A stretch of DNA of 64,000 nucleotides from Escherichia phage LQ5. The notes under the pieces were generated by a model. It saw nothing but the letters and a program-made list of their open reading frames with translations. It ran no database searches and had not been told where the DNA came from. Where the stretch lies: the sequence record OR677401; one strand, 5' to 3'. Position numbers and translations under genes: made by a program. Position 1 is the stretch's first letter. The number at the start of each line of letters is the position of its first letter. Shown here piece by piece: positions 4,086 through 14,029 of the stretch.

Positions 4086-4486
4086 TGAACGTTGAATATT
4101 ATGTATATGCGGATTATGAAAATAATCCGTCTAAAGATGAAGATAACCGTTTAGGTATTGATGCTTTTGAATCCCCTGCTGCAGCTTGGCAATGGGTTGA
4201 AAGTACTGATATTCCTTACCGTTATATTGAAGTGGTAGACCATGCAGGAAACAAGTATCCTAAGGAAGCATATGTTCCTTCTGGAAAGGTAAATTTCCTT
4301 TTGTTCGCGGGTGATAACTACTATCCACGTGGTGGCTATACCGATTTAATCGCTAAAGCTGCCACTGAAGATGAACTACGTGAAATTGTTAAAGAAAACG
4401 AGAATAAGTTTCTTTACGGCTCCGATCGTTTTGACTGGTGGCAGATTGTTAATGCTAATACCCATACTATTGTAGACGAGGGTTAA
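4085..4486 (+). CDS. hypothetical protein
   Basis: 133-aa ORF, start overlaps upstream stop. Confidence 0.5.
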   Translation: MNVEYYVYADYENNPSKDEDNRLGIDAFESPAAAWQWVESTDIPYRYIEVVDHAGNKYPKEAYVPSGKVNFLLFAGDNYYPRGGYTDLIAKAATEDELREIVKENENKFLYGSDRFDWWQIVNANTHTIVDEG

Positions 4487-4771
4487 ATGCTATACGTTAA
4501 GGTTACTAATCCAGAGAATGGATATAATTCAGACCAGGTTGCAGCAGAGTTACTGATTCGCAACTTTGGCAAAGATGCCGTGCTTGATGTTCAACAGGTT
4601 AATATTGGCCGTAGTTCAAGCGACGTTAAACTCAAAGTTAACGGCCAACGTTATAATTCTGTTAACTTTACTTTTTATACCGCAACTGAAAACGGATTGG
4701 TCGAATACGACATCTTTAAAAATCCTTTGAAGATTGCTTCTATTAAACTTGATTACATTAATATGCTTTAA
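4487..4771 (+). CDS. hypothetical protein
   Basis: 94-aa ORF directly following previous stop. Confidence 0.5.
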   Translation: MLYVKVTNPENGYNSDQVAAELLIRNFGKDAVLDVQQVNIGRSSSDVKLKVNGQRYNSVNFTFYTATENGLVEYDIFKNPLKIASIKLDYINML

Positions 4772-4900: not shown

Positions 4901-5167
4901 ATGTTAGTATTAAAATTAGCTTTTTATGACCCTAAAACCAAGACAACAACTACCAAACGTTGTTCTATTTCATATGAATGTCAATTTGGCGAAGTTGAGA
5001 CTGATGGCGAGCCCTTTATGGCAATTGCCGATAGCACATTCGCTAAACCAAAAATAATTCCACTAGTTAACGCTGCGGCTTATCTGGTTGCTCCTGAAGA
5101 AATGACTTATCATACAATTCAGCACATGGCTAAAGATGATAATGCTCCTGCTGGATTTGTAGTTTGA
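4901..5167 (+). CDS. hypothetical protein
   Basis: ATG at 4901 with GAGG 8 nt upstream; ORF-track start 4895 is GTG. Confidence 0.45.
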   Translation: MLVLKLAFYDPKTKTTTTKRCSISYECQFGEVETDGEPFMAIADSTFAKPKIIPLVNAAAYLVAPEEMTYHTIQHMAKDDNAPAGFVV

Positions 5168-5172
5168 TTTAA

Positions 5173-5246
5173 GGCCCTGTAGCTCAATTGGTTAGAGCAT
5201 CCGGCTCATAACTGGCAGGTTTCCGGTTCAAGTCCGGATGGGGCCA
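5173..5246 (+). tRNA. tRNA with CAT anticodon (Met-type gene; probably the AUA-reading Ile tRNA as in T4); no encoded CCA
   Basis: Hand-folded cloverleaf: acceptor GGCCCTG/TGGGGCC, D stem GCTC/GAGC, anticodon loop CTCATAA, T arm TCCGG-TTCAAGT-CCGGA. Confidence 0.75.
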
Positions 5247-5287: not shown

Positions 5288-5953
5288 ATGTTCCATTACA
5301 CTTATAAAATAACAAACAAAATTAATAATAAAATCTATATAGGTGCCCATTCAACCGAAAATTTGAATGATGCATATTTTGGTTCTGGTAAACTCTTAAA
5401 AAAGGCCCAAGCCAAATATGGTATAGAAAATTTCTCTAAAGAAATATTAGAGTTCTTTGACGATAAAACCTCTATGTTTGAGTCAGAAAAGAATATTGTG
5501 ACTGAAGAGTTTTTAAAGCGCCCTGATGTTTATAATTTGAAATTAGGTGGTGAAGGTGGTTGGGACCATTTAAACACTGAAGAATATTTGGATAAAAAGA
5601 AAGAAGCTTCCTTAAAAGGAGTTGCCGCTTTTAAAACCAGATTTGAGAACGACCCAGACCTTAAAGAAAAATATCGTAAAATGGGTTCAGAAAAGTTTAA
5701 ACAACTTTGGGATAATCCTAAGTATAGAGAGAAATTTTCAAATACTAAATCTTTCTTGGGTAAGACCCATTCAGATGAAACCATAAATAAAATGAAAGAA
5801 TCTCACGCCAGAAATAAACATCAACAAGGTGAAAATAATTCCGGATACGGAAAAATGTGGATTCATTCTTTAGAAGAAAAAGTTTCTAAACGTATTAACA
5901 AAACGGATATTATTCCTGAAGGTTGGAATAAAGGCCGTAAAATAAAATTTTGA
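5288..5953 (+). CDS. GIY-YIG homing endonuclease (SegB-like) within the tRNA cluster
   Basis: N-terminal YTYKITNKINNKIYIGAH motif; Lys-rich NUMOD-like C-terminus; lies between the two tRNA genes as T4 segB does. Confidence 0.75.
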   Translation: MFHYTYKITNKINNKIYIGAHSTENLNDAYFGSGKLLKKAQAKYGIENFSKEILEFFDDKTSMFESEKNIVTEEFLKRPDVYNLKLGGEGGWDHLNTEEYLDKKKEASLKGVAAFKTRFENDPDLKEKYRKMGSEKFKQLWDNPKYREKFSNTKSFLGKTHSDETINKMKESHARNKHQQGENNSGYGKMWIHSLEEKVSKRINKTDIIPEGWNKGRKIKF

Positions 5954-5958
5954 ATTAC

Positions 5959-6033
5959 GTCCCGCTGGTGTAATGGATAGCATACGATCCTTCTAAGTTT
6001 GCGGTCCTGGTTCGATCCCAGGGTGGGATACCA
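5959..6033 (+). tRNA. tRNA-Arg (anticodon TCT), CCA encoded
   Basis: Hand-folded: acceptor GTCCCGC/GTGGGAT, anticodon loop CTTCTAA, T arm CCTGG-TTCGATC-CCAGG, 3' ACCA. Confidence 0.8.
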
Positions 6034-6300: not shown

Positions 6301-6308
6301 TATAAATA
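6301..6308 (+). promoter_or_regulatory. T4-type late promoter TATAAATA
   Basis: Exact TATAAATA about 28 nt upstream of ORF 6337. Confidence 0.45.
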
Positions 6309-6336
6309 TGTAAGTTAAACTAACCTAGGAAATAAT

Positions 6337-6891
6337 ATGAAACTTTTAAAATATTTGAGTTGGGTACTGTTGGTTCCACTGGATTTTATCTCTATGGTTC
6401 TGGCTGTTATCCTTGCACCATTTGTGGTTCCTTTCCACAATAAAAAGACAGGTAAATTACCGTACGGGTTTGATTGGATGATGACATACGATAATCCAAT
6501 TGACGGTGACAAAGGTCATATTAAACGTTGGGCTAAAATCAGGAAAATGCCAGGTGGTGTTTATCTCCAGAGAGTAGCTTGGCTATGGCGAAATAAAGCT
6601 TATAACTTTGCTTATCATAAACTTGGACGCGATTGTAGTTCGGAATTCCATTATCGTGGTAATCCTGACGTAGAATCAGGTTCTCCTGATAAAGCTCATC
6701 ATGGGTGGCTATGGATGTGGAATGACGACGCCTGGGGTGTATTTGCTTCAGTTCCTTATCTTAAGGTTGGTGGAATCACATTTTACCTTCGAGTGTACTG
6801 TGGCTGGAAGCTTAAAAGTCTTTTGTCTCGTAAAATCCCTAAGGCTATGTTAGCCTTCCACATAAACCCATTCCGGTTCTACAAGAACTGA
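6337..6891 (+). CDS. hypothetical protein with N-terminal transmembrane segment
   Basis: 184-aa ORF flanked on both sides by the same 28-nt terminator hairpin. Confidence 0.6.
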   Translation: MKLLKYLSWVLLVPLDFISMVLAVILAPFVVPFHNKKTGKLPYGFDWMMTYDNPIDGDKGHIKRWAKIRKMPGGVYLQRVAWLWRNKAYNFAYHKLGRDCSSEFHYRGNPDVESGSPDKAHHGWLWMWNDDAWGVFASVPYLKVGGITFYLRVYCGWKLKSLLSRKIPKAMLAFHINPFRFYKN

Positions 6892-6896
6892 TTCTA

Positions 6897-6925
6897 GGCC
6901 CTTCCGAAAGGTTGGGCCTTTTTTT
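6897..6925 (+). terminator. intrinsic terminator, duplicate of 6272-6299
   Basis: GGCCC-ttccgaaaggtt-GGGCC + T7. Confidence 0.7.
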
Positions 6926-6949
6926 GTTTCTAAAAAGTTTAAAAAAGAT

Positions 6950-6989
6950 GTTTACTCTTTCGTAGAACATGATACTATAGACCTATCAA
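6950..6989 (+). promoter_or_regulatory. early-type promoter cassette (GTTTACT + TGATACTATAGACCTATCAA)
   Basis: Conserved box read directly. Confidence 0.6.
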
Positions 6990-7013
6990 AACAACAGTGT
7001 GAAGGAGAGTAAA

Positions 7014-7277
7014 ATGGATAATTATGGTGAAGTGTTTAATTTCTTTATGAAATGTGTTCCGGAAGAATTTGGTGCCACAGTTAACGATATTAAGGTTATC
7101 GGTCCTGAACACCCGGTGTATGAAACCTATGCAGTAATGGGTAATGAAGATGGACAGTGGTATACAATTAAAGTTGTGATTAATATGTTCTCAGCTGAAG
7201 GTTACGCCAAATCGTCTACCAAAGTTTACCATGGTAATGATTTTGATGCAGAAAATTATTTCAATAATATGAAATAA
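7014..7277 (+). CDS. hypothetical protein
   Basis: ATG at 7014 after GAAGGAGAG; ORF-track start 6999 is GTG. Confidence 0.55.
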   Translation: MDNYGEVFNFFMKCVPEEFGATVNDIKVIGPEHPVYETYAVMGNEDGQWYTIKVVINMFSAEGYAKSSTKVYHGNDFDAENYFNNMK

Positions 7278-7280
7278 AAC

Positions 7281-7321
7281 GTTTACATGGGCTCATGATT
7301 AAGATATTATGAGCCCATAAT
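7281..7321 (+). promoter_or_regulatory. GTTTACA followed by perfect 10-bp stem-loop ATGGGCTCAT/ATGAGCCCAT enclosing a -10-like TATTAT
   Basis: Inverted repeat read directly; no T-run. Confidence 0.5.
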
Positions 7322-7335
7322 TTGAGGAGAACATA

Positions 7336-7734
7336 ATGAATATCGAAGATAAAGAAATGCAAGAGTTGTATAATTCATTAACACCTGAACAACAAAAATA
7401 TGCCAAAGAACTAGAGAAAGCTCTTACTTTCAACTTGGCAAAAACTGATTGGGCCGCGATGTATGAAGAAAAAACTAGATTAGAAATTGAAGCTGCTGAG
7501 AGAAATGAATGGGTTGTCGAAACCAAGATTTCTGATGGTGGTTGCTCTGTTGAGGTGTCTGCTGTAATTAAAGGTACCCATGGCGAAAAATCATGGGGCT
7601 GGCATAATGAAGCAAACAAACATATTGTTCTCTCAACGTCAAAAACTTATGGCCAAAGGGTTCCTGTATCTAAAGCTATTATTAAGCAAGCTCAATGGGA
7701 AGCCAATGAAATCTGCCTCGCAAAAATGAAATAA
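7336..7734 (+). CDS. hypothetical protein
   Basis: 132-aa ORF with GAGGAGA RBS. Confidence 0.6.
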   Translation: MNIEDKEMQELYNSLTPEQQKYAKELEKALTFNLAKTDWAAMYEEKTRLEIEAAERNEWVVETKISDGGCSVEVSAVIKGTHGEKSWGWHNEANKHIVLSTSKTYGQRVPVSKAIIKQAQWEANEICLAKMK

Positions 7735-7737
7735 AAT

Positions 7738-7773
7738 GTTTACAAACCTCAGAGGACAGGGTATAATGTCCTC
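7738..7773 (+). promoter_or_regulatory. sigma70-like promoter GTTTACA-N17-TATAAT with inverted repeat GAGGACA/TGTCCTC flanking the -10
   Basis: Read directly. Confidence 0.6.
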
Positions 7774-7810: not shown

Positions 7811-8404
7811 ATGAACACTTTAAAGAAAATCGTTGAATTCATTCGTTCTAAACTGGGCACCGCAATGGCTCAGAACCTGTCAATCGAAGACCAATACACA
7901 AAAGCTGCTTCTACTCTGATTGATAAAATCACTGAACTCCAGACTGCTCATGTTAAGTCTGTGAATGAAGAAAAACGTATTCGTGCATTGGCTAATGAAA
8001 AAGACCAGCTCGCTGCTTCTAAAGAACGTGAAATTCGTAAACTGATTGCCGAAGGCGCTGATGTCCAGGTACATGCTAAACTTGGCCTCCTTTATCGTCG
8101 TACAGCTACCCAGCTTCGTAAGAAAGCCGATGATTATATCGAAATGCGTAATGAAATTAAACTGAAGGTTAAGGAACTTGATGACTCTCGTCAGGAACTA
8201 GCCGTTAAGCTCGAGTACATTCGTGAAACTCGTAATATGGCTGCCCTTGGTATTGCTACTGCCGATGATGTTGTTGAAATCGCTGCACTGACCAAGATTG
8301 ATATTGAAGACACCCTACTGCGTGTAGAAACGTTTAAAGGCCCACAAGTTGGAATGGATACGACTTCTGCTGATATCGAAGACTACATTAATTCACTTAA
8401 GTAA
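7811..8404 (+). CDS. coiled-coil protein, possibly PspA-like
   Basis: 197 aa, heptad-rich charged helices; PspA resemblance is impression only. Confidence 0.55.
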
Positions 8405-8411
8405 TTTTACT

Positions 8412-8434
8412 GGGAGACTTCGGTCTCCCTATTT
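8412..8434 (+). terminator. intrinsic terminator GGGAGAC-TTCG-GTCTCCC
   Basis: UUCG tetraloop hairpin followed by T-rich tract. Confidence 0.6.
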
Positions 8435-8452
8435 GGAGGAGAGGAGAATATT

Positions 8453-8989
8453 ATGGGTTTATATGATAATTTGATATCAAATATTGATTGGTTTAAAAAT
8501 AGTGGTCTTTCCCATGAAACCAATTCAGTTCTTTATAGAATTCGCCAAGACCTAGGCTATTCAAACGATTTCTTAAGCAGAACATCTAGCCGTGGCGATA
8601 CTACCAAATTACCTTTTATTTTTGCTTTAGCTGAAGACCTTTCTTTTGAAGATGCTTTGGAAATTATTGACGTAAATCTGGCTATTCAACGAGTGGAATT
8701 CGCTGGGCTACGCTATTCAGTATACTCTTTAAATGAACCAAGCGATTATAAACAGCTTACTAATGCCGACGATGATTACCATTTAGTATGCTATTTGATG
8801 TTAGAAAATGGTGACCATTTTGGTATGGTCGACCGCCGCCCATCTTACTCTGATATTAAAAATTACGATAAAGACGAGCTTATTATTTTAGCCAATGAGT
8901 ATACATCAGAGATTCGAAAACAACAACGGAAGCTTAATCGTTTTATTGCTGAATGCCGTGAATACGCTAAAGAGGTTCAAAATGTATAA
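8453..8989 (+). CDS. hypothetical protein
   Basis: 178-aa ORF; C-terminal NRFIAECR motif shared with 8982 and 13203 products. Confidence 0.6.
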   Translation: MGLYDNLISNIDWFKNSGLSHETNSVLYRIRQDLGYSNDFLSRTSSRGDTTKLPFIFALAEDLSFEDALEIIDVNLAIQRVEFAGLRYSVYSLNEPSDYKQLTNADDDYHLVCYLMLENGDHFGMVDRRPSYSDIKNYDKDELIILANEYTSEIRKQQRKLNRFIAECREYAKEVQNV

Positions 8990-9332
8990 GCCTAGTAAAA
9001 CCGACCCTGGTTACGCATTAGCAGATTATGATATTGCTATTTCTTTATTCGCTGGACTTGTCACTGGTACGATTGCCGGACTTGTTGGACTAATTGCTGG
9101 TGGAGTCGTTAATGATACGACACAAAACATATTTGAATTGAACCTTGCCTGGATTTGGGTTCCTGCTTTAATAGGGTATTTTATCCCATTGGTCTTTGAT
9201 ATTGCCCAAACCAATAAAATAAACAAGCCACGTAAAAAGAGATATGCTGTATCGATGGCTAATTATAATGAGTATGTAAAACAAACCAAACGTAATGACC
9301 TTGAAACCTTTATTAAGGAATGTAAATCATGA
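8982..9332 (+). CDS. hypothetical membrane protein
   Basis: ATG at 8982 overlaps upstream stop; Gly-rich TM segments; C-terminal ETFIKEC. Confidence 0.55.
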   Translation: MYKPSKTDPGYALADYDIAISLFAGLVTGTIAGLVGLIAGGVVNDTTQNIFELNLAWIWVPALIGYFIPLVFDIAQTNKINKPRKKRYAVSMANYNEYVKQTKRNDLETFIKECKS

Positions 9333-9619
9333 ATAAAATTGAAATCGAAATCCCGGAACACAATGACGAGAAATCTGCAGAAAAGGCTATCTATGCTCTT
9401 CTGAATAAAGTGAATACCATCGAACATGAATGTGAAGCTATTGCCGATAAGTATGGTATCCAATTCGGTACTGGTGATTATGGTTCAGGCCGTACATATT
9501 ATCCTGTCGGTTATGAATGCTCCCAGTGGTTTAAAGATGAAATTGAAAACAACGGTGGTGAAGTTGAAAATGGCGTCGTTACAGTTGGTGCTTGGATCTC
9601 CTCTTCGGCAATGTGCTAA
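9329..9619 (+). CDS. small acidic protein, member 1 of a tandem paralog family (C-terminal W-x-SSS-x-x-C)
   Basis: 96 aa; ends GAWISSSAMC; stop TAA followed by GGA forming the next gene's RBS. Confidence 0.6.
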   Translation: MNKIEIEIPEHNDEKSAEKAIYALLNKVNTIEHECEAIADKYGIQFGTGDYGSGRTYYPVGYECSQWFKDEIENNGGEVENGVVTVGAWISSSAMC

Positions 9620-9628
9620 GGAAACGCT

Positions 9629-9910
9629 ATGATGAATGATTACCATAAAAATAAAGAATTGGCTGAAGCAGTAAATGATATCCATAAAGCTATTCGTCGT
9701 GCCGAGGAAATTGCAAACAAATATGAGACTCATTTTAATATATACCCTGCTCGCGGTATGGGCGGTGACTATTATTCTCCTGGCGCCTTGAAAGCCGACC
9801 TTGCCCACTGGGAAGAATACGGTGAAGCTCAGTACGCTATTGTAAACCAACATGATTACACTACCAGCCTAGAAAATGGTGGTTGGGTGTCCTCTTCTTC
9901 TGAATGTTAA
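9629..9910 (+). CDS. small acidic protein, paralog family member 2
   Basis: 93 aa; ends GGWVSSSSEC. Confidence 0.6.
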   Translation: MMNDYHKNKELAEAVNDIHKAIRRAEEIANKYETHFNIYPARGMGGDYYSPGALKADLAHWEEYGEAQYAIVNQHDYTTSLENGGWVSSSSEC

Positions 9911-9919
9911 GGAAATAAA

Positions 9920-10132
9920 ATGACTATTGATGAAATTGAAAACCAAATCCGTGAATTAGTACGTAAAGGCCAGTCTGTGGCTGACGAAACGGGTGAAGAG
10001 TTCCGTGTTTCTGGTCGTGGAGAATACATTTCTCCAAAGAACCCGGAATATGATGATTACGAATGGGTCCGTGATGACTACGGTATTCCGGAAGGTGAAG
10101 GTTTCTGGTTTACATCCTCTATGTCTTGCTAA
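9920..10132 (+). CDS. small acidic protein, paralog family member 3
   Basis: 70 aa; ends GFWFTSSMSC. Confidence 0.6.
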   Translation: MTIDEIENQIRELVRKGQSVADETGEEFRVSGRGEYISPKNPEYDDYEWVRDDYGIPEGEGFWFTSSMSC

Positions 10133-10143
10133 GGTGATAAAAA

Positions 10144-10368
10144 ATGTCTGATATTAATGAATTAGAAAAAGCTGCACTTGAACTGGCCGCACTGTATAAG
10201 AAAGTAAAAGATATGGCTTCTGCTCAAAGTTTTGGTGTTGAGCTCGACGATTATGACGGTGAAGTTCGTCTCGAAGATTGGCTGAATAGCTCGTGTTATG
10301 GCGAAGAAGCTGGTCGCACCTTCGTTGCTCAGGCCGATGGTAAAATCTGGTATCCGAGCTCATGCTAA
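10144..10368 (+). CDS. small acidic protein, paralog family member 4
   Basis: 74 aa; ends GKIWYPSSC. Confidence 0.6.
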   Translation: MSDINELEKAALELAALYKKVKDMASAQSFGVELDDYDGEVRLEDWLNSSCYGEEAGRTFVAQADGKIWYPSSC

Positions 10369-10589
10369 AATTAAAGAAAAGATACATTCGTAAAATAAAT
10401 GGTCTTCGCGATTATGCCAAAGGTTGGCCGTTAAGTATTATTATGGCTGATAGACACCCGCGTTATAATACTGAGATGACTTATTACAAAAAGTACGATT
10501 CATATTGTCGGTCTAAAGCAGGTCGTTTAGATGGTTCTTATGAAGACTATTTCGGTAAAAAACCTACTCGTATTTCGTTAGGAAAATAA
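10362..10589 (+). CDS. hypothetical basic protein
   Basis: ATG overlaps upstream stop (ATGCTAA). Confidence 0.45.
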   Translation: MLKLKKRYIRKINGLRDYAKGWPLSIIMADRHPRYNTEMTYYKKYDSYCRSKAGRLDGSYEDYFGKKPTRISLGK

Positions 10590-10619
10590 TTTAACCACAT
10601 GGATGTGGTAGGAGGACTT

Positions 10620-10949
10620 ATGCATAAAGATTCAGTATTCAAATATCTTTTGAAAACAAATAAAGAATTCTATATGAATGGACAGGCCTTCTTGTTCGTT
10701 CGTGGTAAACGTGAGATGTTTTACAAATGCGACCTCTCAATGCACCATCATATGTATCACACCCGCGGTGAGCCTATACTGGGGTTCTCTGGTGACGAGA
10801 CTAGACACATAGCTATGTACTACGACCATTTTAAGCTCAATGATTGCGGTGACAACGCTTTGGTCTGGAACCCGTCTTGGCGTCGTTGGGATACAGTAGA
10901 CAATGATAAATTATTTTTAGAATATTGCAGAAGTGATGTACAACTCTAG
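10620..10949 (+). CDS. hypothetical protein
   Basis: Likely start at internal ATG 10620 after AGGAGGA; ORF-track start 10599. Confidence 0.5.
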   Translation: MHKDSVFKYLLKTNKEFYMNGQAFLFVRGKREMFYKCDLSMHHHMYHTRGEPILGFSGDETRHIAMYYDHFKLNDCGDNALVWNPSWRRWDTVDNDKLFLEYCRSDVQL

Positions 10950-10992
10950 AAAATCATGTTACTATTACCCTACACAAACATGAGGAGAACAT

Positions 10993-11232
10993 ATGTGGTA
11001 TTACGCTCCGATGTCCGATAAGTCTAATGAACCGGTACGCATTACTCGCGCCAAGTTTAAAAAGATTTATGGCTTCTCTTATAAGAAGTCTGATTACGGT
11101 GTTCGTTTTGAAGATGCCCACTGTATCAATGACCCTTATGCTGAAGAAATCTCTAATGAGATAATTCCTATCATTAAGAATAATTCTGATGATATGTGGG
11201 AATTGCATAACGATTACGTCGCTGAAATTTAA
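10993..11232 (+). CDS. hypothetical protein
   Basis: 79-aa ORF with GAGGAGAA RBS. Confidence 0.5.
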   Translation: MWYYAPMSDKSNEPVRITRAKFKKIYGFSYKKSDYGVRFEDAHCINDPYAEEISNEIIPIIKNNSDDMWELHNDYVAEI

Positions 11233-11251
11233 GTTTACTGAGGAAAATATT

Positions 11252-12211
11252 ATGATGTTAGTTATTGGTTCTCGTGCACTGCACCACGCTGGTCTGATTG
11301 AAAGTAAGCATATCGAAAATTCTGATTGGGATTTCATTGCCGACCAAGGCTCATGGAATCACTTTAAAGCACGTATGTTCGGCGCCCATGTACACGTTGA
11401 CAATCCTGGTGTCCAGGCTTTCAAATGTATGCATAATGGTAAAGAAACCTATTTTGAAGCTTATATCGTTCGTGCTCTGACTAACGTACGAGAAATTACC
11501 GGTGAGCTTCAAGACGAAGATTTCACTTCAAGCTATCGTCTCCTGAAATATGCTGAAAATCATATTAAAAAGGACCGTCTTACTGGTTTCTATTGGGCCA
11601 CCCCTGATATCTGTCTGGCTATCAAAACCTCTCATCGTTTCCTTAAGAATAATCCGTTCTTCTTGAAAACTATGTCACACATCAAATACCTTCGTAATAA
11701 AGGTATCACCCTTAACGAAGAACTCCAGGAAATTATGCTGCAACGTCAAAAAGAAACGTTGAGCTATTCTCACCCTAAATTGGACGTAAACAAATCATCG
11801 TTCTTTAATGATACCATTTATACGCTGGACCATGACTCTATTCATGAAGCAGTGGCATTGGCAGGGCGCCCTGCATATACCTTTTATATGAAGGAAGGTT
11901 CTGAAGTCATGACCTCTCGTGAGAAGTTCGAGGCTTTGCCTGAAGCTATTAAACTGGCTGGTGTGTATGAAGAAACTTGTGTCCTGGCACTAGAACGTTC
12001 ACAGGTTCCTAATGACTTCAATATTTCACCATCATTAAGTTTCTATATGGCCCTTGAGAAAGTGTGCACCTCAATCACTTCAGGTTGGTTCCGCACTTAT
12101 GCATGGGAAAACTACCAAGCTGTAGTGAATATGTATAAGACTTTAGGTGAAAACGACTACATTGAACGGTTTAAGCGTAACCAACATTTAATTCGTCCTT
12201 TCGAAAAATAA
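11252..12211 (+). CDS. hypothetical protein (~320 aa)
   Basis: ATG at 11252 after GAGGAAA; ORF-track start 11189 lies in upstream gene. Confidence 0.6.
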   Translation: MMLVIGSRALHHAGLIESKHIENSDWDFIADQGSWNHFKARMFGAHVHVDNPGVQAFKCMHNGKETYFEAYIVRALTNVREITGELQDEDFTSSYRLLKYAENHIKKDRLTGFYWATPDICLAIKTSHRFLKNNPFFLKTMSHIKYLRNKGITLNEELQEIMLQRQKETLSYSHPKLDVNKSSFFNDTIYTLDHDSIHEAVALAGRPAYTFYMKEGSEVMTSREKFEALPEAIKLAGVYEETCVLALERSQVPNDFNISPSLSFYMALEKVCTSITSGWFRTYAWENYQAVVNMYKTLGENDYIERFKRNQHLIRPFEK

Positions 12212-12223
12212 TTGCACAAAACA

Positions 12224-12263
12224 GTGTACAAGGTCTATAGGTGTGATACTATAGACCTATCAA
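12224..12263 (+). promoter_or_regulatory. early-type promoter cassette (GTGTACA + TGATACTATAGACCTATCAA)
   Basis: Near-identical to cassettes at 3268 and 3835, including the downstream leader. Confidence 0.6.
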
Positions 12264-12289
12264 AACAACAGAGTGAAATGGAGAATAAA

Positions 12290-12502
12290 ATGAAACTTTC
12301 TAACCAAGCAATCAACATGTTAAACGAAGTTCGTGCAGCTGGTGCTAAATGCCTGATGGTTAACACTCGTGACGGTGACCTTCGTCAAGCATTTGGTGAA
12401 TTGAAATCTGCTGACCTGGTTAAATGTTCAGTTGGTATTGGTAACGCACTTCGTGTATCCTTATCCCCTAAAGGTAAAATGTACTTTTTCAACAAAAAGT
12501 AA
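12290..12502 (+). CDS. hypothetical small protein
   Basis: ATG 12290 after GGAGAATAAA; ORF-track start 12212 lies inside the promoter cassette. Confidence 0.55.
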   Translation: MKLSNQAINMLNEVRAAGAKCLMVNTRDGDLRQAFGELKSADLVKCSVGIGNALRVSLSPKGKMYFFNKK

Positions 12503-12516
12503 GTGAGGAAAATATT

Positions 12517-13203
12517 ATGAATAGTTCTAAAGTGTTTAATAGTCAAGCTCGTGCAGTAGGCGGTTTTGCTCATGCAATTAAAAACGACCAGATTAAAAAC
12601 GAGCCTATGTTCTTTAACTGTGATTTGAATTTTGCTTTTGATAATGGCGGCCCAATTACTCGTAGCTTTATCCAAAATCTTCCTGACGATTGGAAAGACT
12701 CGGATGTAGTATTTGATTCCCGTGTACACATGTTAATGCCTGGCTGGTATCCTGCTATCCCAGGTTATCACCATGATGATGTACCACGTCCGGATATTCC
12801 GGTGGGTCAACACTTTATTACCGCAGGGCAACCTGATTATGATAATCCTCGATACCATTCTGAACATATTCTTGGTCTTGTTAACGCTGATGTGTGTCCT
12901 ACTCATTTTGCAACCGGAACTGCACAGTTCAGTCAGATTCCTGAAGGCGAACTTATCTATCGCCAGTGGCATAAAGAAGTTCTGGAAAAAATTGAGTCCA
13001 ATGAATTAACCAAGTGGGATGCTCCTGACCGCACGTTACTCCAGTTTGATTGGCAAACATGGCATACAGGTTCTCGTGCAGTAAGTAACGGGTGGCGCTG
13101 GTTTGGTCGTGTGTCTCGTAATACAGACCGTGTTAAAAAGATTACAAATGAAATCCGCGTTAATGCTCAAGTATATCTGGAATTCCCTATGGAGGGCTGG
13201 TAA
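12517..13203 (+). CDS. hypothetical protein
   Basis: 228-aa ORF with GAGGAAA RBS. Confidence 0.6.
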   Translation: MNSSKVFNSQARAVGGFAHAIKNDQIKNEPMFFNCDLNFAFDNGGPITRSFIQNLPDDWKDSDVVFDSRVHMLMPGWYPAIPGYHHDDVPRPDIPVGQHFITAGQPDYDNPRYHSEHILGLVNADVCPTHFATGTAQFSQIPEGELIYRQWHKEVLEKIESNELTKWDAPDRTLLQFDWQTWHTGSRAVSNGWRWFGRVSRNTDRVKKITNEIRVNAQVYLEFPMEGW

Positions 13204-13796
13204 TGGCCCTTTATGAACCTGGTTGTATGGGTATTGATACAAACTTCATCCGTCGGTCGGAAAATGCTGGAATTATTATCCCAAGTGGTGAGACTATGAT
13301 TATTAAAAAGTCCTGGCGAAATATTGATGATGGTGATGAAGGAATTTCAGCCAGTACAATAGATTGGTCAGGTTGTACTGCCGAAATGAAACAGCTTTTA
13401 ATTGAGGAATATAAAATGGGCTATATTGTAAACGGCTGGCAACCAGTAAAGAAAATCACTCGCACTGACGATAAGTATATTTGTCTCCAAGATGGAAAGG
13501 CCAGGCTCATTGATACTGAATGGCTTACGTTCGGACGATATGTTGTAGCGTATTTTATTACTTTACTTCCAATGTTAGTGCTGAGTTCATTTTTAATCGA
13601 TGCCAACTGGAATGATGCGCTAGAACGAACTATTATTGGCGCTGGATTAATGAACCTTGCCGCCGCTGGCGCTGCTTTAAGTATTTGGTGCTTGGCTATT
13701 GAAATGCCATGGCGTTTACGTCGTCAACAACGTCTTTACGACGAAGGTAAAATCAAACAGAATTTAAATGAGTTTATTGAGGAATGCCGTAAATGA
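13203..13796 (+). CDS. hypothetical membrane protein
   Basis: Start overlaps upstream stop; hydrophobic segments; C-terminal NEFIEECRK. Confidence 0.55.
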   Translation: MALYEPGCMGIDTNFIRRSENAGIIIPSGETMIIKKSWRNIDDGDEGISASTIDWSGCTAEMKQLLIEEYKMGYIVNGWQPVKKITRTDDKYICLQDGKARLIDTEWLTFGRYVVAYFITLLPMLVLSSFLIDANWNDALERTIIGAGLMNLAAAGAALSIWCLAIEMPWRLRRQQRLYDEGKIKQNLNEFIEECRK

Positions 13797-14029
13797 GTAT
13801 TGCAATTTATATTAAATCTGAGTCATGTGATTCTTACCTGTATTCCTATGATACCGGAACATCAGAAGAGAAAATTAAAGAAGACTTAGAAAGCGATATG
13901 GATATGTTCTGTCCTATTGGTGACTATATGCTTCAAGTGTCTGATAGTGAAAGTCCATCATCAGAAAATAGACTTCAAATTATTATGCAAGATATTTTTA
14001 AACAATCATGGGAACGAGACGATGAGTAA
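13793..14029 (+). CDS. hypothetical acidic protein
   Basis: 78-aa ORF, coupled start. Confidence 0.5.
   Translation: MSIAIYIKSESCDSYLYSYDTGTSEEKIKEDLESDMDMFCPIGDYMLQVSDSESPSSENRLQIIMQDIFKQSWERDDE

Follow-up and report, generated by a model that had tools for sequence, protein, structure and literature searches.

A tandem array of small acidic proteins in Escherichia phage LQ5 is apparently one half of a two-part phage module with a MenT-like nucleotidyltransferase

What do four small proteins of one kind, encoded one behind the other and all ending in cysteine, do for a phage? The question is raised by a 64,000-nucleotide stretch of Escherichia phage LQ5 (OR677401), hereafter the window, whose genome is that of a Dhakavirus (T4-like, Straboviridae) and in which four consecutive open reading frames (ORFs), paralogs 1 to 4 (P1 to P4, Table 1), form such an array. 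An original prediction, made from the sequence alone, described them as paralogs, attributed part of their common ending to the ribosome-binding site of the following gene, and pointed out that arrays of this kind are often inhibitors of host proteins. Our analysis indicates that these genes make up the small-protein half of a two-part phage module, widespread and apparently not described before, whose other half is a MenT-like nucleotidyltransferase (NTase) encoded downstream, a linkage that the original prediction did not contain.

The lengths, coordinates and endings of the four genes are exactly those first read from the ORFs. The proteins are indeed small, acidic and rich in tyrosine, with isoelectric points (pI) of 4.42, 5.04, 4.17 and 4.22 for paralogs 1 to 4, net charges from -7 to -10, and 4-8 Tyr each; public records label all four as hypothetical proteins. 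The region is 99.8% identical to that of Escherichia phage QL01 and 99.4-99.5% identical to those of E33 and WG01. Gene 57A/gene 1 and nudE/e bracket the array, which is located downstream of an e.6 homolog, at the site that is the counterpart of the T4 hyperplastic region with e.5-e.2. Among the 635 six-frame ORFs of the window, the terminal motif is confined to the four paralogs, and no further member of the family was found in the T4 e/tRNA region or in the remainder of the window.

Pairwise identity between the paralogs is 22-30%, and pairwise BLAST comparisons are significant among P1, P2 and P3 only. Nevertheless, all four match PHROG 899 (function unknown), with E-values from 3e-23 to 1e-9, and they do so with and without the tail: tail-less P3 and P4 match this family with E-values of 5.5e-8 and 4e-6, and residues 1-45 of P4 alone with 4e-5. 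A test profile built from 70 members of non-T-even phages, from which the last 10 residues had been cut, recovers the tail-less P1, P2 and P3 with E-values of 1e-15, 5.5e-13 and 1.7e-8, respectively. The similarity thus extends beyond the last five residues, and these profile matches identify the four ORFs as true paralogs, homologous beyond the tail, as had been proposed.

The evidence that carries our interpretation is the linkage between this family and the NTase. The enzyme is present in 734 phage records, according to tblastn, and its gene also lies downstream of the small genes in Mosigvirus ST0, Moonvirus Merlin, and Aeromonas phage Aes012. In Phapecoctavirus Schickermooser, Otagovirus phiPsa267, Lazarusvirus Lazarus, and Menderavirus Marzo, it is flanked by 3-5 small ORFs that match the family profile and end in W-x-x-S-S-x-x-C. 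When 80 IMG/VR loci were selected through the NTase alone, 70 proved to contain 1-6 matches to the family hidden Markov model (HMM), 24 of them with a single member, and 5 further loci contain visibly divergent members. All 150 HMM matches are on the strand of the NTase, at a median distance of 884 bp upstream of it, and Cys is the last residue in 143 of them, versus 5.7% of background ORFs. The linkage is also seen in the four contigs of metagenome-assembled genomes (MAGs) that have flanks (4/4). Across 12 neighbourhoods of ±8 kb from unrelated lineages, the NTase and the small family are the only components common to all 12; the next gene cluster by sharing is an antisense artefact, and no third universal component was found. 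Genes for nicotinate phosphoribosyltransferase (NAPRTase), ligase, phosphatase, and Sir2 recur only sporadically.

The same result is obtained in the reverse direction. With divergent small proteins as tblastn queries, an NTase gene is found 0-700 bp downstream and on the same strand in 4/4 newly found lineages, namely Myxococcus phage Mx1, Ralstonia jumbo phage RsoM2USA, Ralstonia phage RSP15 (Ackermannviridae), and Erwinia jumbo phage Kaldavass. The numbers per genus run in parallel, with the small family versus the NTase counted 43 vs 51 times in Pseudomonas phages and 59 vs 68 in Acinetobacter phages when divergent queries are used, and 57 vs 59 (Aeromonas), 34 vs 36 (Enterobacter), and 31 vs 35 (Klebsiella) in the search with paralog 1. 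The small family and the MenT-fold NTase are therefore genetically coupled, in both directions, across otherwise unrelated lineages. A pattern-based scan of limited sensitivity for bacterial chromosomal copies returned 5 matches, all of them on phage-like MAG contigs. Short-form enzymes (~250-260 aa, with a trimmed IGS...DxD core) occur without a small partner in the Streptomyces phage Faust, the Gordonia phage JonJames, the Vibrio phage K412, and the KVP40-like phage PVA8; the short-form gene adjoins an RNA ligase gene in Faust and a tRNA cluster in JonJames.

Searched exhaustively with a profile, 1.84 billion representative proteins yielded only 20 clusters of the small family, with sizes of 69-97 aa save for one protein of 1,424 aa, and nearly all end in G-x-W-x-S-S-x-x-C. 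Their layout comprises an N-terminal helix ending in approximately AExIADExGxxF, a Gly-rich hairpin (YGMGGxY or DYGSGRTYYP), an acidic stretch containing Trp, and the tail, so the shared N-terminal helix and the conserved Cys ending of the original prediction are correct. The 143 HMM matches that end in Cys provided 129 unique members (Cys is thus last in 129/129 by selection) of 56-112 aa, with a median pI of 4.4 and a maximum of 6.2; Ser is at -4 in 110 of them and at -3 in 106, and Trp is at -7 in 104. In the family, the spacing from Ser-Ser to Cys ranges from 0 to 2 residues. The AF2 model of paralog 2 has a mean confidence (pLDDT) of 91.5 and consists of a helix (9-31), a hairpin (35-49), a second helix (51-63), and a strand at 84-88 (GGWVS), followed by the tail SSSEC at low confidence, which is consistent with an exposed tail. 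As modelled, this is a family of phage-specific small acidic alpha/beta proteins. Two RSP15 members (4965-5186 and 5480-5767 of that locus) end in ...SSTAICNGY and ...SAGMCGYL, with three residues past the Cys, and the member P0038 ends in ...SSTQECN, so that Cys is not strictly C-terminal throughout the family.

The paralogs represent subtypes T1 to T4, and different genera have kept both the subtypes and the order of their genes. All nine Dhakavirus loci have the order T1-T2-T3-T4, while related T-even-like genera have T1 alone, T1-T2, or T1-T2 plus a third member; orthologs of T1 are found in Dhakavirus, Mosigvirus, Karamvirus, Moonvirus, Aeromonas phages, and Phapecoctavirus. Paralog 4 contains the motif twice, as an internal DWLNSSC and a terminal IWYPSSC, and the W-x-x-S-S-C unit is doubled likewise in its subtype orthologs of Merlin, Aes012, and Phapecoctavirus. 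Many Dhakaviruses have a fifth, divergent paralog between P2 and P3, absent from the window and exemplified by a 65-aa protein of Salmonella phage ABTNLS3 (3592-3789 of its locus) that ends in SWVSSSYEC; copy number thus varies within Dhakavirus. In ST0 (4295-4578 of its locus), a T2-type paralog is broken into two overlapping frames, which would be either a frameshifted pseudogene or a sequencing error; its counterpart in related metagenomic sequences (P0041) is intact.

Is the common ending selected in the protein, or does it arise at the nucleotide level, as a side effect of the ribosome-binding site that follows or of gene conversion in the recent past? For the latter speak the three junctions at which the stop TAA is followed by GG(A/T), and the codon pair TCC-TCT shared by paralogs 1-3. 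The original prediction had read TAA-GGA at all three; two do so, and the third reads TAA-GGT(GA). However, all three Shine-Dalgarno elements start past the stop codon, so that the shared nucleotides are TAA alone; at the end of paralog 4, the ATG of the next gene overlaps the Ser and Cys codons (tcATGc). We compared the codons of nine Dhakavirus genomes and obtained ratios of nonsynonymous to synonymous change (pN/pS) of 0.27, 0.29, 0.38, and 0.16 for paralogs 1 to 4, which are under purifying selection. Over the final 8 codons pS is far above pN (0.59 vs 0.07 in paralog 4), and the Ser codons vary between paralogs and orthologs (TCC, TCT, TCG, TCA, AGC, AGT) with no change in the peptide; those of paralog 4 alternate between AGC, AGT and TCA while WYPSSC stays. 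One ortholog has the motif although no GGA stands behind its stop, and the 143/150 members that retain it belong to unrelated phages with differing downstream contexts, including places where no gene follows closely. The ribosome-binding-site explanation fails because the excess of pS over pN persists in the tail and the Shine-Dalgarno element begins only after the stop, and we regard a nucleotide-level origin as practically negligible. Judged from the codons, the Trp-Ser-Ser...Cys ending is a protein-level feature.

The partner enzyme has PF23940 and PF23942 as its only Pfam matches. Structures of a small protein and of the NTase were predicted as monomers, and for the NTase Foldseek places MenT1 and the MenAT1 complex at the top of its ranks; the structural match values are 10.2 for the MenT1 toxin, 8.6 for both ANT(2'') and MenT3/TglT, 8.0 for MenT4, 7.6 for JHP933, and 7.1 for LnuA. 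In the NTase core, G6-S7, D25-x-D27, and E69 are invariant, residues that fit a predicted catalytically competent Pol-beta NTase. The invariant residues of DUF7275 (K125, H128, K139, H194-D195-x-x-H198, E240-E241, and E248-R249) are kept even in the short forms. All 83 partner-associated enzymes have Cys at position 272, where the three short forms that were aligned (Faust, JonJames, and K412) have Ile, a pattern confounded by phylogeny that is suggestive of a Cys-Cys or shared-metal contact with the Cys of the small proteins. Neither the four paralogs nor the NTase match PADLOC-DB at E-values up to 10, nothing was found in NCBIfam, and no mention of DUF7275, DUF7277, or a phage MenT-like enzyme was found in the literature. 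Identification of the NTase as RlaP, defined as PF10127 (PMC12776372), or as a CCA-enzyme was rejected, since it matches neither PF10127 nor any CCA-enzyme family. Genes for tRNAs, RNA ligase, and polynucleotide kinase (PNK) recur near the module or the enzyme gene in RSP15, Kaldavass, Faust, JonJames, and CC31, which fits an RNA or tRNA 3'-end substrate, as in MenT. Genes related to NAD, namely those for nicotinamide phosphoribosyltransferase (NAMPT)/NAPRTase, phosphoribosyl pyrophosphate (PRPP) synthetase, Sir2, and ADP-ribosyltransferase, lie within a few kb of the module in loci L005, L007, L009, and L010 and in those of K412 and PVA8, a pattern that is sporadic and not universal.

Starting from the homology of the small proteins, the protein-level constraint on their tail, the folds of both components, and the co-oriented linkage established in both directions, we infer that the small proteins bind the enzyme, that the tail has a part in this, and that regulation runs from them to it. 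We tentatively favour the reading that they are cognate partners of the NTase, acting as regulators or pseudo-substrates, and hold it to be a little short of evenly balanced, with the uncertainty over the direction included. The N-terminal helix, the Gly-rich beta-hairpin, and a third strand from the conserved G-x-W-x-S would form the body, after which S-S-x-x-C would be a flexible, exposed tail. The acidic body would dock on the basic, nucleic-acid-binding face of the enzyme, with the tail entering or nearing the active site, and control of the enzyme by the small proteins would resemble that of MenT1 by MenA1, with the small proteins serving as antitoxin-like inhibitors or as pseudo-substrates. 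Non-redundant control or targeting would then be the contribution of the conserved subtypes T1-T4.

Several observations weigh against regulation by cognate partners. Each enzyme is accompanied by 1-6 conserved paralogs where one inhibitor should suffice, and the invariant Ser-Ser...Cys tail resembles a site that reacts or is modified more than it does a simple plug. The NTase has no sequence match to DUF1814/AbiEii and contains an extra conserved domain, rich in His, Asp, and Glu. Moreover, five loci with long-form enzymes, that of Enterobacter phage CC31 and L060, L061, L066, and L084, have no partner. In CC31, seven tRNA genes (6615-7567 of its locus) replace the small gene next to an intact NTase, and DNA homology to close relatives, which do have a small-family gene, resumes at 7578.

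Such a tail has led us to consider that it is itself the site of chemistry. The small proteins could be acceptor substrates, on whose tail Ser or Cys the NTase, possibly with DUF7275, places a nucleotide or a phosphate, and the modified products (protein-nucleoside monophosphate conjugates, primers, or carrier-like adducts) would perform the real function; we hold this possible, though on the unlikely side. Conservation is highest at the hydroxyl and thiol nucleophiles of a flexible tail, subtype T4 has the W-x-x-S-S-C unit twice, C272 of the enzyme is invariant only within the partner-associated clade, and several substrates per enzyme would account for the arrays. Pol-beta NTases are known to modify protein hydroxyls, as in GlnD/PII and MNT/HEPN. 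Enzymes of the MenT fold also transfer phosphate to an active-site Ser/Thr (PMC11375011). If the small proteins were the sole substrate, however, the enzymes of the five partner-less loci would be pointless; the variable Ser-Ser to Cys spacing (0 to 2) and the Cys of RSP15, with three residues after it, also count against this reading. In a broader form, rather unlikely in our estimate, the phages would have a post-translational modification system in which the MenT-like enzyme and its DUF7275 covalently modify the tails by nucleotidylylation, by phosphorylation, or by activation followed by attack by the Cys; if that were true, protein-nucleotide conjugates or cyclised tails would be agents of host takeover or counter-defence.

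Other explanations were weighed as well. The small proteins might be specificity adaptors, in which the tail and hairpin hold the enzyme and the divergent T1-T4 bodies direct it to targets that differ, such as distinct tRNAs or RNA ends. Non-redundant subtypes in a fixed order across genera, an invariant tail on bodies with 22-30% identity, an enzyme that can occur alone (CC31), and the recurrence of tRNA, RNA-ligase, and PNK genes nearby, together with the action of MenT enzymes on tRNA 3' ends, would suit this proposal, which we nevertheless consider quite unlikely given that strongly acidic proteins bind RNA poorly and that 24/70 loci have a single member. The same low probability applies to the small proteins being independent inhibitors or mimics of host proteins, such as nucleic-acid mimics or inhibitors of NTase-type defence toxins (AbiEii or CD-NTases), that merely travel with the enzyme gene. 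They are small and acidic, they probably belong to an early transcription unit of the hyperplastic region, multiple paralogs could match multiple host targets, and phage antitoxin mimics do exist, T4 Dmd being one. Hitch-hiking, however, does not explain a co-oriented adjacency kept in 10 or more unrelated lineages with nothing else in common, nor the absence of the partner wherever only a short-form enzyme occurs; there are no PADLOC or anti-defence family matches, and the diversified host inhibitors of the original prediction lack direct support, given purifying rather than diversifying selection, the conserved subtypes and order, and the linkage to a phage NTase. We consider it very improbable that these are precursors similar to those of ribosomally synthesized and post-translationally modified peptides, in which a lanthionine- or AviCys-like ring would arise by addition of the terminal Cys to dehydroalanine made from Ser: the S-x-x-C spacing of T1-T3 resembles lanthionine/AviCys motifs and tandem precursor arrays are typical, but Pfam/PHROG scans of the neighbouring genes and the comparison of the 12 neighbourhoods found no dehydratase, cyclase, radical-SAM, YcaO, LanD, or flavoprotein, the supposed leader is a confidently folded domain in the AF2 model, subtype T4 has S-S-C with no spacer, and it is the core, instead of the leader, that is conserved. 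A relationship to T4 internal proteins (IPI-type), which have an N-terminal capsid-targeting sequence (MKTYQEFIAE-like) cleaved by the prohead protease, was rejected by inspection alone, as the N-termini MNKIEIEI, MMNDYHKN, MTIDEIEN, and MSDINELE are unlike it.

Returning to regulation of the NTase by cognate partners, the closest analogue is the MenA1-MenT1 toxin-antitoxin pair. MenA1 is a 68-aa protein encoded upstream of MenT1, and its N-terminal helix blocks the electropositive active site of MenT1 and induces auto-phosphorylation (PMC10435456, PMC11375011). In both systems the gene of a small protein is upstream of, and co-oriented with, that of a MenT-fold NTase, and no structure matches the phage enzyme better than MenT1 and the MenAT1 complex. 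The differences are also considerable. The phage module has 1-6 paralogs in place of one small protein; these are alpha/beta proteins with a W-x-S-S-x-x-C tail that are neither homologous to MenA1 nor of its two-helix V shape; the enzyme combines a classic G-S...D-x-D spacing with the extra DUF7275; and the module is phage-borne, the limited scan described above having found it in no bacterial chromosome. AbiE (AbiEi/AbiEii) and MenAT3/4 are more distant, because their antitoxins are proteins of ~200-300 aa of the winged helix-turn-helix-plus-kinase-like type, not small acidic Cys-tailed ones, and they are host defence or toxin-antitoxin systems rather than genes of lytic phages.

Small partner proteins are found in other systems as well. 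In GlnD-PII and MNT-HEPN, an NTase of the Pol-beta superfamily modifies a small partner protein on a hydroxyl side chain, and in GlnD a second (HD) domain reverses the modification; the pairing of NTase and small protein is similar, but there is no sequence or fold match, and modification of the phage proteins is hypothetical. LysW and ThiS/MoaD are small acidic globular carriers whose flexible, conserved C-terminal tail is the handle for partner enzymes. They end in Glu or Gly-Gly, in contrast to the phage Ser-Ser...Cys, they have no homology to the phage proteins, and their partners are ATP-grasp or E1-like enzymes instead of a Pol-beta NTase. Finally, RlaP (PF10127) and CCA-adding enzymes are phage Pol-beta NTases encoded near RNA ligase or tRNA genes (PMC7824862), a setting that recurs near the phage module too, but they have no small Cys-tailed partners.

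With these results, four anonymous hypothetical proteins become half of a conserved two-component system that is tractable by experiment and that occurs in hundreds of sequenced phages. These include T4-like phages of Escherichia, Shigella, Klebsiella, Enterobacter, Aeromonas, and Acinetobacter, as well as Phapecoctavirus, Pseudomonas Otagovirus, Stenotrophomonas/Ralstonia phages, Erwinia/Ralstonia jumbo phages, and Myxococcus phage Mx1. Enzymes of the MenT fold have otherwise been known solely as toxins of bacteria that target tRNA and as effectors of abortive infection; a phage enzyme of this kind with small partners suggests that MenT chemistry may be used for host takeover or tRNA repair, or alternatively that phages may bring with them modulators of NTase toxins that are ready for use. 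Mutagenesis, mass spectrometry, and the modelling of complexes can be aimed precisely at the tail with its invariant Trp...Ser-Ser...Cys.

Table 1. Location of the array, the NTase gene, and their surroundings in the window.
Feature	Position	Strand	Details
Paralog 1	9329-9619	+	96 aa; subtype T1; DYGSGRTYYP hairpin; ends GAWISSSAMC; PHROG 899, E 2.8e-23
Paralog 2	9629-9910	+	93 aa; subtype T2; RGMGGDYYSPG hairpin; ends GGWVSSSSEC; PHROG 899, E 2.4e-20
Paralog 3	9920-10132	+	70 aa; subtype T3; ends GFWFTSSMSC; PHROG 899, E 6.2e-14
Paralog 4	10144-10368	+	74 aa; subtype T4; ends GKIWYPSSC; PHROG 899, E 1.4e-9
NTase gene	11252-12211	+	319 aa; DUF7277+DUF7275; PHROG 2141; predicted MenT-like Pol-beta NTase fold; 884 bp downstream of array
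Paralog 1 stop TAA + GGA, Shine-Dalgarno of paralog 2	9617-9622	+	6 nt before ATG; after Cys codon
Paralog 2 stop TAA + GGA, Shine-Dalgarno of paralog 3	9908-9913	+	Sequence reading
Paralog 3 stop TAA + GGTGA, Shine-Dalgarno of paralog 4	10130-10137	+	Sequence reading
Sigma-70-like promoter	7739-7767	+	TTTACA-17-TATAAT; 11/12 matches (consensus scan)
Second promoter-like site	7282-7310		
T4 e.6 homolog	7811-8404		PHROG 1203
Predicted membrane protein	8979-9332		117 aa; PHROG 2330; weak Pfam matches to transporter families
Spacer ORF	10362-10589		75 aa
Spacer ORF	10620-10949		109 aa
Spacer ORF	10993-11232		79 aa
tRNA gene, Met-CAT	5173-5246		
tRNA gene, Arg-TCT	5959-6033		
Downstream ORF	13793-14029		78 aa

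The array and the NTase gene are contained in a co-directional gene chain (7811-14029) with intergenic gaps of at most 78 nt. The sigma-70-like promoter of Table 1 likely drives this chain as an early promoter, and no late promoter (TATAAATA) was found between 6301 and 14472. Because of these two features of the sequence, the early-region location of the array assumed by the original prediction is plausible. The e.6 homolog is directly behind this near-consensus promoter. The 117-aa membrane protein gene and paralog 1 share nucleotides at ATGA, the stop codon of the former and the start of the latter, an arrangement suggestive of translational coupling into the array.

The three ORFs that separate the array from the NTase gene belong to PHROGs 7065, 9796, and 3723, of which none has a known function, and are unrelated to the array. 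The position just upstream of the NTase is occupied by a 79-aa ORF in ST0 and by a 95-aa ORF in Merlin; there is no spacer ORF in Aes012 or in the non-T4-like lineages, so that these genes are apparently not core to the module. The two tRNA genes are the only ones in the whole 64 kb and lie ~3.3 kb upstream of the array, at the position of the T4 tRNA cluster, and nudE lies ~2 kb downstream of the module. Some public records of family members or of the NTase, in vB_EcoM_005, vB_KpnM-VAC36, phiPsa267, and several Dhakavirus entries, are likely mislabelled; the suspect labels are "tail completion protein", "major capsid protein", "prohead assembly scaffold protein", and "chromosome partition protein smc". 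The 78-aa ORF at the end of the chain has 30% identity over 73 aa (E 2e-7) with a 73-aa ORF (6306-6527) that immediately precedes the small-family genes of a 358-kb jumbo-phage contig (L053), and genes of this type could be an occasional accessory of the module.

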